Of a stretch of DNA of 47,021 nucleotides, positions 6,327 through 29,580 are shown one piece after another. The notes beneath the pieces are model-generated. The model was not told the origin of the DNA. It did not search any database and saw only the letters and a list, made by a program, of their open reading frames with translations. Source of the stretch: Escherichia phage ChristineMuster_Bas80; the sequence record PQ850597.1. The stretch is one strand, 5' to 3'. The translations under genes were made by a program, and so were the position numbers. Positions within the stretch are counted from its first letter, which is position 1; each line of letters begins with the position of its first letter.

Positions 6327-6935
6327 TTAATCATCAAGTTTCACGCCGGGAATTTTGCCTGCTGCGATGGCTTCATAAATTAGCTTAGCCTCATCCTCGC
6401 GCTTGTAATCTTGCGCTACCATTTCTAATACCGCGCAGATAGATTCAAGTACAGCCTCATGCTTCCTTTCTGCTTCTGTGCGAAATGGGATGAAAACATC
6501 CTTATTGGATGGGGTTATTGCGTAGTAAATCTCACCAGATGGTCTGATAACTATTTTTTCGCCATCAAGACCAATAACCTTGACTTTTCCCCATGACGTT
6601 CCGTTGCTGATATACTCACATTCACACCCAACTGGCGGCAGTCCTTCTCCGTTCCATGCTGAATTTTTCGATGCTGCGAGCGCTGCTTTGTATTGCCAAT
6701 AGGTTACTATCGACTCCTTATGGTCGGAAGATAATGGCGTAGCCCATTCTTCTCCATACCAGAAATGCACAAGGCTATTTCCTGTGTGATGTTTCCATGA
6801 GAACCCCTCATAGTGTGGGTCATTTGTGTCCCATGCGCACAGCGAACCGTCATTATCTTGAGTAATTGACAGCGCGTTTTGAGGCCACCCACCGCGCTTA
6901 GGTAATTCTTGAACCAGTAAATCAATAAGCTTCAT
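6327..6935 (-). CDS. Hypothetical protein (202 aa)
   Basis: ATG at 6935 (MKLIDLL...) preceded by AGGAG; overlaps stop of upstream HNH gene. Confidence 0.5.
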   Translation of the reverse strand: MKLIDLLVQELPKRGGWPQNALSITQDNDGSLCAWDTNDPHYEGFSWKHHTGNSLVHFWYGEEWATPLSSDHKESIVTYWQYKAALAASKNSAWNGEGLPPVGCECEYISNGTSWGKVKVIGLDGEKIVIRPSGEIYYAITPSNKDVFIPFRTEAERKHEAVLESICAVLEMVAQDYKREDEAKLIYEAIAAGKIPGVKLDD

Positions 6936-7407
6936 AATTAAAATCTCCTGCGTATTTAATTCTCGCCTCTTGCGACACAAGCTCTGCCAGCTCAATGTCT
7001 TCGTAGTAGCCCAGATGGATCTGTGTTTTATTTACGCATATCCTTACTCGCCATGAATTTCCGGCAGGATACCAGCTGACTCCCTTCATCCCTGTTTTGT
7101 TTCTGGATGTGATATCCTTGTTGTGCTTATTTTCAGATGAAGTGCATGGCCTTAAGTTGCATAATCTATTGTCATCTCTCACCCTGTTAATATGATCCAC
7201 CTCCTTTGGCATCTCTCCTGTCACGTATAGAAGAGCAAGCCTGTGCGCAAGATAAAGCTTTCCATCAATGCAGATCTGTATGTACCCTTTCCCATTTACC
7301 GACCCAGCCTTTCGACCGCTAAACCCATGTCTTCTTGATTTAATCCACGTGAATTCACCAGATTCAGGGTTATAACTAAGAACACGGAAAAGATCACATT
7401 GTTTCAT
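6922..7407 (-). CDS. HNH endonuclease with AP2-like DNA-binding region
   Basis: Motifs GYIQICIDGKLYLAHRLALLYVTGEMPKEVDHINRVRDDNRLCNLR typical of HNH_3-type homing endonucleases; GGGAGA RBS. Confidence 0.7.
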   Translation of the reverse strand: MKQCDLFRVLSYNPESGEFTWIKSRRHGFSGRKAGSVNGKGYIQICIDGKLYLAHRLALLYVTGEMPKEVDHINRVRDDNRLCNLRPCTSSENKHNKDITSRNKTGMKGVSWYPAGNSWRVRICVNKTQIHLGYYEDIELAELVSQEARIKYAGDFNYEAY

Positions 7408-24812: not shown

Positions 24813-27190
24813 TGGCTGAAGAAGTCGGCGGAATTGTCTATGAAGTCGGGATGGATGTTAAAGGTCTGAAAGCTGGCGCGACAACAGCTAATAAGACTTT
24901 AGATGACCTTGAATCATCACTAAACAAGACCACCGGAGAACTCAACAAGCTGGACAAAGGCGCGCGCAATGCTGGCAGCGGAATGAAGAATGCTGGCGGC
25001 GCAGCTTCAGGGCTTAAAACCAGCATGTCGATGTTGGCTGGCGCAATATCCGTGTCACTGATTATCGAATGGGGAAAGCGATTCCTTGAGGTTGCCGATA
25101 ATATGACACAGCTTCAGGCAAGGATTGCTCGCTTGTCAACAGATGCGAAAACCGCGAACGAAACATTCAGCTCACTGGCAAATATTGCATCAACCACTGG
25201 CGCAAGCCTAAGTGATACCACGAAGCTGTGGGAAACATTGACGTCATCACTGAAAGAGGCTGGTGCTACAAATGCGCAGGTTCTTAACCTTACAGATACC
25301 CTGCAAAAAATAGGTCGAATCGGCGGGTCATCGACCGAAGAAATGGCCAACGCATTACGTCAGTTCGGTCAGTCAATCGCATCTGGCACAATCCGCGCCG
25401 AAGAATTTAACTCCATCCTTGAACAGATGCCTGAACTGGCGCGCCAGATTGCTGCTGGGCTTGGCATTTCAATGGGTGAACTTCGCGCCAGAATGCTTGA
25501 CGGCAAACTGACGGCAGAAGATGCGCTAAATGCCATTCAGGACAGGACAAGCATCGTCAATGCTGAATTCGCAAAGCTACCGCGCTCTATATCTCAGGCG
25601 ACTGGCAGCCTTGAAACATCATTTGCAAAAATGATAGCAAGCATAAACGACGCAACAGGAGCCAGTTCTACCTTTGTTTCAGTTATTGACTCTATTACCT
25701 CAGCAATCAACAGACTAACTGGTCAGACTATAGGTGCGGCAGAGGTTATTTCTGATTTGACATCAACAGCAGAGATGTTCAGTCGCAGAGCAAGAACATG
25801 GTCATGGGTTGGCATTGATGGTTGGGCCGCGCAGAATCAGGCCATAGCGGCGGTAGCAAATCAGGCGGCCACATTGGTCGCGGATATGGATGCCGTCACC
25901 AAATCGACAGGAGAGGCGGCAAAGGCGCAGGCTCATTTGACAGTGCCAAAAGCAGCAGAGAAAGAGAAAAAGAAAAAAGCAACAGGGAAAAGCGCCGAAG
26001 AACGACAAGCTGAGTCAGTGGCTGAAAAGCTGGAGAAATTACGCCAGCAAACCATGCTCAATGCCACATCCACCAGTGAACTCTCCCGCGAACAGGCAAT
26101 CCTCAATGCGCAACAATCGCTTGGCAAGGCAGCCACTCAGGAGCAAATAAAACTGGCCGGTGAGTATGCGGCGAAAATTTGGGATCAGAAGAATGCGCTG
26201 AAGGAGCAGGCAGAAGCGGAGAAGGAAAAGCAGCGTGTAGAAAAATCATATCAGGGACTGCGTTCCATTGCGTCGCCAACCACTGGCATTGACAGTGAAT
26301 ATCAGCAACGTATGGCTGACCTTGACGCCTACACCGCAGCGTACCCGCAGAAAATTACAGAGATTGAACAGACTCGCGCATCGATTGAAGCACAATACCG
26401 CCAGCAGAGAATGGATGCCATGTGGGCTGAATGGCAGCAGCAAAGCCTTGGGGCGCAACTGTTCGGAACCGCACTGGATTCCGCAATGAGCACAGCCTCA
26501 AACAGTATTACCGGATTGCTGACAGGTACAATGAGCGTTCAGGATGCCATGCGTAGCCTCGGCTCTACGGTGCTTAACTCGCTGGTAAACAGCTTCGTCG
26601 AGATGGGTGTGCAGTGGGTGAAATCTGCGGTAATGGGGCAGACAGCTCAGGTGGCAGCAACCGCTACCACAACAGCGGCGCAAACGGCAGGACTAGCAAC
26701 CACCACAGCTGCCTCCACTGCGGCGGCAGCCACTACCACGGCAGCGTGGACTCCGGCAGCAATCGTCGCATCAATCGGTTCATTCGGCGGTGCTGCTGCA
26801 ATTGGGGTTGGTGCTGTTCTCGGGGCACTGGCAATGGGTATCGCTGGCAAGCGAAAAAATGGTGGCCCTGTTAGCGCCGGAAGTATGTACGAAGTGGGCG
26901 AGGGAAACGCACCAGAAATATTCCAAGCCAGTACAGGCAGGCAATACATGATACCTGGCAACTCAGGAAAGGTTATCAGCAACAAAGACCTTGCCGGAAG
27001 TGGTATTGGCTTGATTATAAATAATAATGTTTATAATAGTTCAAGCGGAGCAACAGCAACTACCAATGCCAGAGATAACGGTGATGGTTCGATAACTATT
27101 GAGACATTTATATCCGATATGAATGAAGGCGGACCGATGAGTCAATCCATCTCAAGGAACTTTAATACCAACAGGAGAGCAACAGAGTAA
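24812..27190 (+). CDS. Tail tape measure protein
   Basis: 792-aa ORF, largely helical/Ala-rich with Ala/Thr repeat tract (AATATTTAAQTAGLATTTAASTAAAATTTAAW) and Gly-rich hydrophobic segment. Confidence 0.85.
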   Translation: MAEEVGGIVYEVGMDVKGLKAGATTANKTLDDLESSLNKTTGELNKLDKGARNAGSGMKNAGGAASGLKTSMSMLAGAISVSLIIEWGKRFLEVADNMTQLQARIARLSTDAKTANETFSSLANIASTTGASLSDTTKLWETLTSSLKEAGATNAQVLNLTDTLQKIGRIGGSSTEEMANALRQFGQSIASGTIRAEEFNSILEQMPELARQIAAGLGISMGELRARMLDGKLTAEDALNAIQDRTSIVNAEFAKLPRSISQATGSLETSFAKMIASINDATGASSTFVSVIDSITSAINRLTGQTIGAAEVISDLTSTAEMFSRRARTWSWVGIDGWAAQNQAIAAVANQAATLVADMDAVTKSTGEAAKAQAHLTVPKAAEKEKKKKATGKSAEERQAESVAEKLEKLRQQTMLNATSTSELSREQAILNAQQSLGKAATQEQIKLAGEYAAKIWDQKNALKEQAEAEKEKQRVEKSYQGLRSIASPTTGIDSEYQQRMADLDAYTAAYPQKITEIEQTRASIEAQYRQQRMDAMWAEWQQQSLGAQLFGTALDSAMSTASNSITGLLTGTMSVQDAMRSLGSTVLNSLVNSFVEMGVQWVKSAVMGQTAQVAATATTTAAQTAGLATTTAASTAAAATTTAAWTPAAIVASIGSFGGAAAIGVGAVLGALAMGIAGKRKNGGPVSAGSMYEVGEGNAPEIFQASTGRQYMIPGNSGKVISNKDLAGSGIGLIINNNVYNSSSGATATTNARDNGDGSITIETFISDMNEGGPMSQSISRNFNTNRRATE

Positions 27191-27195
27191 AAAGA

Positions 27196-27222
27196 AGCCC
27201 CGCTATTGCGGGGTTAGCTTTT
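27196..27222. terminator. Hairpin terminator candidate overlapping the stop of the minus-strand gene
   Basis: gccccgc-tatt-gcggggt hairpin then T-rich tract. Confidence 0.5.
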
Positions 27223-28078
27223 CTATCTCCAGCATCAACCTTGGTGTTTTTATTACCCATTCCGTACACCCATCAAACCCAGAAAATCCAGCTCTCTGGA
27301 ATTCATTGTGAAATCTTGATTCTATGCTTGCGGCAGTCATGCCATTTGTTTTTATTATCTTGATGATATCGAATTGAAATGGCGTATCTCTGGTTAATTT
27401 CCTTATCCTCTCTGCTTTATTATGAGTTACACCAATCTTTACCGCCCCAGCTGATACGGAAACAAGAAAGTAAACATATGCCGTTTTGTTTGTCCTCTTA
27501 AACCCATAATCAGCGCATTCAGGGCATCCCTTTCCAGACATATGATCGGAAGTGAATTGCAAAAATTCCCCATGCTTACGGCATATTATTTTAACCTTAA
27601 CCCTAGAATTAACGAATGAATCAACATCATATTGATAAGCGAACGAGTGAACTATATTTGATTTTCTCACAAAAATATCAAACGTTAACTTCCTGTTCTT
27701 GCTGCATGATGGACATCCTGCTCCTGCCATATGATGACTTCTTCTTTGAGTGAATACGCCGTGCTCTCTGCATATTATCTTGATATTTTCTGAAGATACC
27801 TCACCTTCAACCAGGTAATAATCATATTTACATTCATGAATTTCATTAAACCTCTCAATCAGGGAGTGCAGTTTGATTTTTCTTGATTCACGCCCACACA
27901 ACCTGCACCCTCCAACCAAATGAGCGTCAGGCCTTTGTCTAAACTCCCCATGCTCCCTGCAAATTATTGTTAATTTTGTTTTAGCGTCAAAATAAACAGA
28001 TTTTGAGTAATCATATTTGTCGCCGTGCGTGAGCCTTGCACGGCGAATGAATTCTTCAGTAGTTAATCGCTTGCGCAT
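27203..28078 (-). CDS. Zn-ribbon-repeat protein with C-terminal T5orf172/GIY-YIG-like domain (homing-endonuclease-like)
   Basis: Three tandem repeats of about 57 aa each with YDYS and C..HG.F...H..G.GCP.C; C-terminal YVYFLVSVSAGAVKIGVTHNKAERIRKL block. Confidence 0.5.
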   Translation of the reverse strand: MRKRLTTEEFIRRARLTHGDKYDYSKSVYFDAKTKLTIICREHGEFRQRPDAHLVGGCRLCGRESRKIKLHSLIERFNEIHECKYDYYLVEGEVSSENIKIICREHGVFTQRRSHHMAGAGCPSCSKNRKLTFDIFVRKSNIVHSFAYQYDVDSFVNSRVKVKIICRKHGEFLQFTSDHMSGKGCPECADYGFKRTNKTAYVYFLVSVSAGAVKIGVTHNKAERIRKLTRDTPFQFDIIKIIKTNGMTAASIESRFHNEFQRAGFSGFDGCTEWVIKTPRLMLEIEKLTPQ

Positions 28079-28175
28079 TTGAATCCTCGGTTAAAGGTGG
28101 TTTGAAGTGATGCAGCAGACGATAACCAATCGCTTTTCGGACGCCTCCTAGCTGCATGTTAATTATACCATGGCA

Positions 28176-28184
28176 TGCTAAAAT
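28176..28184 (+). promoter_or_regulatory. Extended -10 promoter TGcTAAAAT
   Basis: Identical 9-mer to the 19634-19642 element; 25 nt upstream of the 28210 ATG. Confidence 0.45.
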
Positions 28185-28209
28185 AAAATAAAATTAACTG
28201 GAGATTAGC

Positions 28210-29580
28210 ATGCCTATACCTTACCCCAGCTGGTTACCTTTACCACAAAGAGCCAACAAGAATTTAACATTCCAAACCCCATTCAGACAGGATGTTCCTG
28301 CTGTTGGCGCGCCTATTTTTCAAAAATTAACGACTGATATAAGTTCGCAGTGGTCACTGACGTGGAAGTTCACGCTGGTACAGGAGTGCGCATTCATCCA
28401 GTGGTTGCGTAGCCCGAGCTACCTCAACAAATGCAACAACTGGTTCACCATGATGATTGACCTCGGCGGTAGCGGATTGCAGGAGCAGACACTGCACTTT
28501 ACCGATTATCCTGTGCAAACCAGTATTGATGGTGGTGTGGTTACGTGGACTGGCAATGTTATCGCCAAGAAAATCAATAACACGATGGATGAGTTTGATG
28601 ATGTTCTGGTTGAGCTTGATTACAGATGGTATAGCTGGCTGGATGAAGTTGTTAACCGTGAACTTCCGCAAGTCTATATGACACCGATACTGCATATGCC
28701 AATCAACATGCTGTCATCTACGCTTGATAGCCGCATTGTTTACGACGGACCACAGGTTTACTACGTCAACAGAAGCGGCAATCTTGTGCAGTCCTCCGCC
28801 GGTGAATGGCCTCTTACGTTTATTGATGGGGTTGCTGTTGGGCGTGTACCGCCGGAAAAGGCGGCTACCAATGTGGTAGAACATTCTAACAACTTACTAT
28901 CTACATCATTTTCGCGCGCCAGAACAACAACTACGGCGAGTTCTTTGAAGTTATTCCAAGAAACTTATGCCGCTAAATTAACCGCAACGTCGGTATCAGA
29001 TAACCATTATATAAACCAGAGGGTGGCTCCAGCACCGGGAACAAGGTATTCTCTTAGCGTTATCATGAAAGCAGATGAGCACCAGTCGGCAGCGGTAGCC
29101 ATCGGCAACCGAGCCGCTTTAGATAATTTCCAGTATGCCTATGTTGACTTAGCCTCTGGCGATTTGATATCAGGCGACACCTCAAGGTCGTTTGTAAGCA
29201 ATATTGGTGGAGGGTGGTATCACGTTTCAATGGCTGCGGACACTAACGACTCTGGAGGATTGATTTATTCTCAGATAAACATGTTGTCGCCGTCTAACTC
29301 CCTCACCTTCATGGGGGATGGTGTCAGCGGCTTCAATGTGGCTCTAATTCAATTGGAGGCATCGCCATTTGCCTCGTCCCCGATAGTAACCGAATTGTCA
29401 CCAGGAACACGCACGACGGCATCCGCAAAAGTAGTAATGAACGGCGCAACCAGTATAGACATTACCTATTCCGACGGCTCTGTGGTAAACGTTACGTCTG
29501 TTGACGGTTACGCCACCGTTCCACAGGCCGATTCCGCGTGGGGTAGTAAGTACATCACAACAATAAAATTCAACGTCTGA
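28210..29580 (+). CDS. Minor tail protein (distal tail component) with C-terminal extension
   Basis: 456-aa ORF right after tape measure region, GGAG RBS. Confidence 0.45.
   Translation: MPIPYPSWLPLPQRANKNLTFQTPFRQDVPAVGAPIFQKLTTDISSQWSLTWKFTLVQECAFIQWLRSPSYLNKCNNWFTMMIDLGGSGLQEQTLHFTDYPVQTSIDGGVVTWTGNVIAKKINNTMDEFDDVLVELDYRWYSWLDEVVNRELPQVYMTPILHMPINMLSSTLDSRIVYDGPQVYYVNRSGNLVQSSAGEWPLTFIDGVAVGRVPPEKAATNVVEHSNNLLSTSFSRARTTTTASSLKLFQETYAAKLTATSVSDNHYINQRVAPAPGTRYSLSVIMKADEHQSAAVAIGNRAALDNFQYAYVDLASGDLISGDTSRSFVSNIGGGWYHVSMAADTNDSGGLIYSQINMLSPSNSLTFMGDGVSGFNVALIQLEASPFASSPIVTELSPGTRTTASAKVVMNGATSIDITYSDGSVVNVTSVDGYATVPQADSAWGSKYITTIKFNV

Follow-up and report, generated by a model that had tools for sequence, protein, structure and literature searches.

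Results

A reverse-strand gene with three zinc-finger repeats lies between the tape-measure and distal tail genes

The DNA analyzed here (the window) is the 47,021-nucleotide sequence of Escherichia phage ChristineMuster_Bas80 (PQ850597.1). Its tape-measure gene occupies positions 24812-27190 (Pfam TMP_3, 1.9e-56), and the first distal-tail (minor-tail) gene lies at 28210-29580. The original prediction placed a free-standing gene on the opposite strand between the two, and this arrangement was confirmed: a 291-aa reading frame sits within a 1019-bp insert (Table 1). The start of 27196 first assigned to this gene is the first base of a terminator stem, and the reading frame itself spans 27203-28078. 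Similarity of the encoded protein to its homologues is far above chance, with 4309 matches at E<=1e-5 in a public protein collection and a best E-value of 3.6e-193. No paralogues of the reading frame were found elsewhere within the window.

The product contains three tandem repeats, a feature already recognized in the original prediction. Direct alignment gives 35% mutual identity and 16 invariant columns, including a C-x2-H...C-x2-C pattern, and the internal repetition was also seen by tblastn of the protein against the window (E=6e-10); a self-BLASTP of the protein did not list the repeats. The measured period is 63 residues (C40, C103, C166) rather than the roughly 57 first estimated. All 12 zinc ligands (C-x2-H...C-x2-C in each of the three repeats) are invariant across 30 homologues. 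Repeat 3 is the sole repeat to reach a Pfam cut-off (DUF723, 26.9 bits against a cut-off of 20.9), and its residues 155-189 match DUF4379 at 24.3 bits, slightly under the cut-off of 24.5. By this Pfam match and the four conserved zinc ligands per repeat, the modules can be classed as DUF723/DUF4379/CapR-type fingers and are predicted to bind DNA. In the copy of phage LPST10 (locus L002, 3013-3888), a Tyr replaces the His ligand of the third finger (H169Y).

Table 1. Coordinates of the insert, its gene and the flanking blocks in the window (".", no single strand).
Feature	Position	Strand	Basis or remarks
Left flank haplotype, tape-measure 3' end, ~300 bp	26891..27190	+	Identity to insert-bearing versus empty-site genomes
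Whole inserted cassette, 1019 bp	27191..28209	.	Tape-measure stop to minor-tail ATG; comparison with empty-site relatives
Bidirectional intrinsic-terminator-like hairpin, AGCCCCGC-TATT-GCGGGGTT	27196..27215	.	Scan positive on both strands
Homing-endonuclease-like gene, 291 aa	27203..28078 (stop codon included)	-	ORF list; ATG start
Putative T5orf172/MUG113 (GIY-YIG superfamily) nuclease domain, residues 199-276	27251..27484	-	Conserved Y203, K214-I-G216, R224, E253, E273
Zinc-finger repeat 3, residues 129-192	27503..27694	-	Ligands C166, H169, C185, C188; repeat alignment
Zinc-finger repeat 2, residues 66-128	27695..27883	-	Ligands C103, H106, C122, C125; repeat alignment
Zinc-finger repeat 1, residues 2-65	27884..28075	-	Ligands C40, H43, C58, C61; repeat alignment
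Shine-Dalgarno GAGGA of endonuclease gene, 5 nt before its ATG	28084..28088	-	Sequence; conserved in all T5orf172-bearing cassettes
Candidate extended -10 promoter of endonuclease gene, TGgTATAAT	28162..28170	-	Sequence and conservation
Candidate extended -10 restart promoter for distal tail genes, TGcTAAAAT	28176..28184	+	Sequence and conservation
Shine-Dalgarno GGAGA of minor-tail gene (ATG 28210), cassette-supplied	28200..28204	+	Sequence
Right flank haplotype, first 160 nt of minor-tail gene	28210..28369	+	Strictly linked to insert in sample

The C-terminal domain belongs to the T5orf172 branch of GIY-YIG nucleases

The block YVYFLVSVSAGAVKIGVTHNKAERIRKL (residues 201-228), which had been likened to the T5orf172/GIY-YIG family, is part of a domain that exceeds the Pfam cut-offs of two families of the GIY-YIG clan: MUG113 (PF13455; residues 213-275, 37.5 bits, cut-off 22.3) and T5orf172 (PF10544; residues 201-265, 30.0 bits, cut-off 20). 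PHROG 681, labeled 'endonuclease', matches the protein from end to end (5.8e-64), and similarity to nuclease families is thus well established. The protein gave no match above cut-off in NCBIfam and none in PDB sequence searches. Within the C-terminal domain, Y203, K214, G216, R224, E253, G270 and E273 are invariant among 34 homologues. The GIY-YIG core (the Tyr of strand 1, the x-I-G of strand 2, the Arg of helix 1 and an acidic catalytic residue that follows strand 3) is retained as Y203, K214-I-G216, R224, E253 and E273. Judged from the order of secondary-structure elements, not from structural superposition, these residues would correspond to Y6, Y17, R27 and E75 of I-TevI. The His/Tyr of helix 1 is missing, as it is in ICP1 Gp88 (PMC8263062). 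As modeled, the domain is predicted to adopt an alpha/beta fold with a three-stranded antiparallel sheet, and the best matches of the model are the GIY-YIG nucleases SLX1, I-TevI and UvrC; Foldseek on the flexible full-length model was uninformative.

Other family assignments were considered and rejected. A match to the HNH endonuclease family PHROG 559 spans residues 57-219 only, that is, the zinc-finger repeats, and is not accompanied by a Pfam HNH match. A Hef/Vsr-like (EDxHD) endonuclease would share the finger array alone; the protein lacks a Vsr/DUF559-type Pfam match, and its C-terminal domain is T5orf172. PADLOC returned no known anti-phage defence system, only weak matches to the candidate family PDC-S57 (E=2.7e-4 and 1.1e-3) that span about 50-65 residues of the nuclease core.

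Selection was assessed from dN/dS. With dS against the divergent alleles saturated, the analysis was limited to near-identical copies of the gene, which gave values of 0.1-0.2, and to the nuclease domain compared with that of phage RCIP0103, which gave a value of about 0.09. The gene therefore appears to be maintained as a coding sequence, and its nuclease domain appears to be under purifying selection. These results bear on the idea that the protein is a catalytically dead, CapR-like DNA-binding regulator, perhaps one that controls the divergent promoters of its own cassette. The GIY-YIG enzyme I-TevI represses its own expression too, and the candidate promoters described below are arranged back to back. 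CapR-type zinc fingers, moreover, form a transcriptional repressor in PLE satellites (PMC10448857, PMC8096241). However, every GIY-YIG-type core residue is retained and invariant, and neither the nuclease domain of recent copies, in which synonymous differences are zero and non-synonymous ones few, nor the low long-range dN/dS fits a dead enzyme. We therefore find the regulator idea scarcely credible.

The cassette carries candidate transcription and translation signals for both strands

The hairpin at the left end of the insert begins 6 nt past the tape-measure stop codon (27188-27190) and has an 8-bp stem with 6 G-C pairs and a TATT loop. The T-run that follows it is better on the minus strand than on the plus strand, where it is weak, and the tail transcript may therefore be terminated only in part. 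The hairpin had been proposed to be shared between the two converging genes, with the stop codon of the endonuclease gene in its loop. It scores as terminator-like on both strands; the codon (complement of 27203-27205) spans the last stem base and part of the loop, which puts it at the stem/loop boundary. A G+C-rich hairpin is found just after the tape-measure gene in all 11 occupied junctions that were aligned.

At the other end, the 131-nt spacer 28079-28209 contains GAGGA, TGgTATAAT (minus strand), TGcTAAAAT (plus strand) and GGAGA. The plus-strand motif, from which the tail operon had been predicted to restart, is present at the expected position as TGCTAAAAT, and GTGCTAAAATA is conserved in 11 of 11 occupied junctions examined, including those with unrelated cargo genes. 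The minus-strand candidate behaves differently: TGGTACAAT is kept in other T5orf172 cassettes and is absent from KilA-N cassettes, the motif TGGTA(T/C)AAT being conserved only where the cassette carries a T5orf172 gene. A generic sigma-70 scan called neither of the spacer promoters, and neither has a -35 match; both candidates are based on their extended -10 motifs together with conservation across cassettes. On these grounds, the hairpin and the two motifs probably function as terminator and promoters, respectively.

The insertion is precise and variably present among related phages

Phages STGO-35-1, ZCEC08, Bas77 and IME207 have no sequence between the two genes: the stop codon of the tape-measure gene and the start codon of the minor-tail gene form an overlapping TAATG. 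The boundaries of the insert are exact, the two codons of this TAATG being split by exactly 1019 bp in the window. The original prediction named an alignment of related genomes as a check for insertion polymorphism, and such polymorphism was readily found. Using a 300-nt probe across the empty junction and scoring contiguous matches, we detected an uninterrupted junction in 155 of 203 related phage records, a redundant sample (it has many 'seszw' records) whose counts do not represent independent lineages. Empty sites are thus the majority, and the gene is far from universally present. The window belongs with siphoviruses of ~47 kb that infect Escherichia, Salmonella or Klebsiella, a group that includes Skatevirus, Swiduovirus and Caminolopintovirus. 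It is most closely related to the E. coli phages Bas77, Bas78 and Bas79, and Bas77 aligns to 80% of the window's right half at 95.3% identity.

Seven records from five phages (PSH-1, ECO111 5-P, PHA46_2, LPST10 and BS5) contain copies of the gene at about 95% nucleotide identity, and proteins 98% identical to the 291-aa product occur in PSH-1, LPST10 and protein cluster P0001. Divergent alleles with the same architecture occupy the same junction in VSt472, RCIP0103, VLCpiS13b, swi2 and VLCpiS13a; between swi2 and the window, the spacer alone can be aligned at the DNA level. Metagenome contigs encoding proteins 89% and 60% identical to that of the window carry the gene at this junction in the same position and orientation, and distant paralogues (35-42% identity) are located at other sites in Skate and STGO-35-1. 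In the Klebsiella phage VLCpiS13a, a frameshift divides the gene (locus L012, 2509-3385) into a finger-array ORF of 205 aa and a nuclease ORF of 106 aa. This split copy may be a decaying gene or, possibly, a two-part enzyme.

The gene is better conserved than its backbone and is linked to its flanks

Compared with LPST10, ECO111 5-P and PSH-1, the reading frame of the window shows 97.7-98.1% identity, significantly higher than the 91.9-92.7% identity of a 1400-nt stretch of downstream backbone in the same comparisons (Fisher p<=8e-8). Over this same stretch Bas77 is 98.1% identical to the window, yet its site is empty. We considered whether the gene could instead be ancestral to the phage group, inherited vertically and repeatedly lost, and not currently mobile. 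Long residence at the locus is shown by the divergent alleles (60-89% protein identity) found at one site in Salmonella, Escherichia and Klebsiella phages. Vertical inheritance does not, however, account for a gene whose similarity between genomes significantly exceeds that of their backbones, or for a closest whole-genome relative that lacks the gene and has a seamless overlapping junction; each loss would need to restore the TAATG overlap precisely. Inheritance with repeated loss is, in our judgment, very unlikely.

Sequences on both sides of the insert differ between carriers and non-carriers. Outside a window-specific patch, the left flank shares 93-97% identity with insert-bearing genomes and 47-80% with those of Bas77, ZCEC08 and STGO, whose sites are empty. 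The exception is IME207, which has the insert-type left haplotype and an empty site, and the right block alone is for this reason strictly linked to the insert in the sample. This block covers the initial 160 nt of the minor-tail gene, where insert-bearing genomes are 96.4% identical to one another, empty-site genomes 90.9%, and genomes of the two different classes 64.9%; for the following 140 nt the same three comparisons give 90%, 89% and 88%. The switch occurs at about 28370, beyond which the window is closest to Bas77. Nucleotide differences in the right block are mostly synonymous; about 8 of 57 residues are altered. Three endonuclease alleles that differ greatly from one another (those of the window, swi2 and VSt472) share this right-flank haplotype, so the block cannot be assigned to the specificity or target of the enzyme in the window. 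The sharply bounded flank blocks may have arisen by co-conversion, the right block being a candidate co-conversion tract, a candidate cleavage-resistant allele, or both. The linked haplotype could also be an old allelic lineage that merely co-segregates with the insert.

Several further discontinuities were observed in this region. Two short patches, 26951-27070 and 28210-28249, set the window apart from all genomes in the comparison (65-80% identity). At its start (40 nt, MPIPYPSW), the minor-tail gene is closer to that of the Klebsiella phage VLCpiS13a than to those of the Salmonella carriers. The two patches indicate fine-scale mosaicism around the insert. Further upstream, the middle of the tape-measure gene (24892-26011) does not align with Bas77, otherwise the closest relative, and LPST10 aligns to this gene only from about 26340 onward. 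The tape-measure gene is thus mosaic too, its breakpoints lying upstream of the cassette.

The distribution of the gene is also relevant to the possibility that it is a domesticated nuclease directed against competing phages, phage satellites (cf. ICP1 Odn) or host DNA rather than serving its own spread. In ICP1, a T5orf172 nuclease with a swapped DNA-binding domain is indeed an anti-satellite weapon (PMC8263062), and the gene studied here is intact, under apparent purifying selection, and weakly similar to the candidate defence family PDC-S57 (E=2.7e-4). These PADLOC matches, however, cover only the generic nuclease core, and a beneficial gene is not expected to be missing from most relatives or to be frameshifted in VLCpiS13a. 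The presence/absence pattern, the contrast between 98% and 92% identity and the linked flanks are instead predictions of self-propagation. A role as a weapon is very unlikely. It is not mutually exclusive with homing, because marker exclusion is itself a form of competition.

Unrelated genes occupy the same junction in other phages

Besides three very divergent T5orf172 endonuclease alleles, the cargo found at this junction includes a KilA-N-like gene and a 55-aa ORF. The unrelated reverse-strand genes are those of KFS-SE2 (locus L010, 3177-3827), Vi II-E1 (L011, 2167-2817) and BUCT_XGG_PSM_3377 (L009, 1677-1844); one such cargo encodes a 216-aa protein with a weak KilA-N match (PHROG 6095, labeled 'amidase') and another is the 55-aa ORF. 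Unrelated cargo is framed by the same kind of hairpin and GTGCTAAAATA promoter, and the site therefore behaves like a cargo slot. A broader reading would be that the junction is a standing slot, framed by a hairpin terminator and a GTGCTAAAATA restart promoter with its ribosome-binding site, that exchanges unrelated reverse-strand genes, and that the recoded 160-nt block marks the determinant of both cleavage and immunity. We put this forward tentatively, as a possibility that is more doubtful than probable. If true, the phage of the window and Bas77, which differ by little else in this region, would form a clean E. coli system in which T5orf172 homing and target specification by three fingers could be demonstrated.

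Other genes of the region and of the window were noted in passing. IME207 has a reverse-strand HNH endonuclease gene (locus L006, 3364-3855) one intergenic site downstream, after the first minor-tail gene. In the window, 6922-7407 on the minus strand is a second homing-endonuclease-like gene, whose 161-aa product matches Pfam HNH_3 (3.3e-12), PHROG 99 'HNH endonuclease' (4.7e-66) and, weakly, an AP2 domain. The first distal-tail gene (28210-29580, plus strand) is a long form encoding 456 aa. Most relatives have a 157-aa protein (PHROG 384), to which residues 3-155 correspond, and residues 132-456 make up an extra module (PHROG 11600, 2.7e-95; weakly, the tail-protein family PHROG 5939). The long form is also present in Bas77, at an empty junction, and the short form in LPST10, ZCEC08 and STGO-35-1. 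Finally, a reverse-strand block at 17608-19573, upstream of the virion-gene region, encodes a C-5 cytosine methylase-like protein that matches only positions 59-165 of a 324-position profile, a ParB-HTH/KorB-like protein and a 120-aa ORF without a match.

Discussion

The gene between the tape-measure and minor-tail genes of this phage is very probably a free-standing homing endonuclease of the T5orf172 branch of the GIY-YIG superfamily, a conclusion drawn from comparative sequence analysis. This reading is favored because a DNA-binding array is combined with an intact nuclease, because the insertion is precise and optional and the element appears younger than the backbone around it, and because the flanks are linked to the insert while alleles turn over and occasionally decay. 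The original prediction of a mobile, homing-endonuclease-like insertion is thus well supported, by the exact boundaries, the higher conservation of the gene than of the backbone, the empty site in the nearest relative, the linked flanks and the frameshifted copy. A weapon, a vertically inherited gene subject to loss and a dead regulator are all less well supported than homing.

The following scheme can be proposed. The three zinc-finger modules (DUF723/DUF4379/CapR type) would read an extended DNA site, and the C-terminal GIY-YIG-like domain would cut near it. During co-infection with a related phage whose junction is uninterrupted, the enzyme would cleave the empty allele, candidate positions for the cut being the junction, its vicinity and the ~160 nt at the start of the minor-tail gene. 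Recombinational repair templated by the carrier would then copy the cassette together with some flanking sequence, and the recoded flanks and split junction of the carrier would resist cleavage. DNA cleavage by the 291-aa protein, the location of its cut and homing itself are all presumed here from these features. The cassette would be cheap for the phage, as it sits exactly between two genes and probably brings a terminator for its antisense transcript along with its own promoter and ribosome-binding site. It would also break the translational coupling of the downstream tail genes to the tape-measure gene and supply them with a new promoter and ribosome-binding site.

The class of gene and near-identical copies of it are already public, and the element is of an ordinary, known kind. 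What the present analysis adds is a clean and tractable pair of BASEL-type E. coli phages, the phage of the window and Bas77 with its near-isogenic empty site, and a well-resolved example in which the insertion point is exact and the linked flank tract has been delimited at both ends. For annotation, it means that the reverse-strand gene in this tail operon is probably a selfish passenger and not a tail component. For phage engineering and therapy, it means that such a gene could cause local conversion of tail genes when related phages infect the same cell.

Comparison with known systems

The closest counterparts are the orthologues of Salmonella phage LPST10 (YP_010053780.1, 'endonuclease' in RefSeq), BS5, PHA46_2, PSH-1 and ECO111 5-P, which are 97-98% identical and occupy the same junction in the same orientation. 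These LPST10-type carriers differ from the window in having a backbone of about 92% identity and another N-terminal part of the tape-measure protein. RefSeq uses the label 'endonuclease' for the orthologues of LPST10, BS5, swi2 and VSt472 alike.

Free-standing GIY-YIG genes are known from T4, in which SegF and SegG mediate intronless homing and marker exclusion (PMC2988022). The mechanism proposed here is the same: a free-standing gene cleaves the endonuclease-less allele in a neighboring gene, and repair copies the gene and its flanks. The Seg proteins have a canonical N-terminal GIY-YIG domain followed by C-terminal NUMOD/HTH-type DNA-binding modules, whereas the protein of the window has the reversed domain order, a nuclease of the T5orf172 branch and a triple zinc-finger array. 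Hef-type (Vsr-like/EDxHD) homing endonucleases (PMC3239194, PMC2988022) have a nuclease domain unrelated to that of the window protein. Related finger arrays are nevertheless fused to Vsr-like nuclease domains in many homologues (protein clusters P0036 and P0066), and a 'Hef-like' protein of Tenacibaculum phage PTm1 matches residues 9-189 of the 291-aa protein.

T5orf172 has been placed within the GIY-YIG superfamily, and the nuclease activity of ICP1 Odn (Gp88), which depends on a conserved Glu, was shown experimentally (PMC8263062). Odn, the one member with experimentally demonstrated cleavage in the papers cited here, shares its nuclease domain family with the window protein. Unlike that protein, it has a RepA_N DNA-binding domain, targets a satellite replication origin and is not a homing element (PMC8263062).

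The best match in architecture is provided by the T5orf172 homing endonuclease genes surveyed by Barth, Dunham and Seed (2023; PMC10448857), of which 87% of 229 carry at least one CapR, DUF723 or DUF4379 zinc-finger domain, often repeated as 'beads on a string'. These genes cluster near structural or other essential genes and are variably present, prone to frameshifts and subject to domain shuffling; homing of those in ICP1 has not been experimentally verified (PMC10448857). The arrangement seen here, an N-terminal array of C/H fingers with a C-terminal T5orf172 domain, is identical to theirs (PMC10448857), and nothing essential is different. The gene also resembles them in standing free beside structural genes, in its variable presence among close relatives, in its tendency to decay by frameshift and in the shuffling of domains between alleles. 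The copy in the window belongs to an E. coli/Salmonella lineage of 47-kb siphoviruses (Bas77/Skatevirus-like) rather than to ICP1 or other vibriophages, and it takes the form of a reverse-strand cassette with what appear to be its own terminator and a restart promoter.
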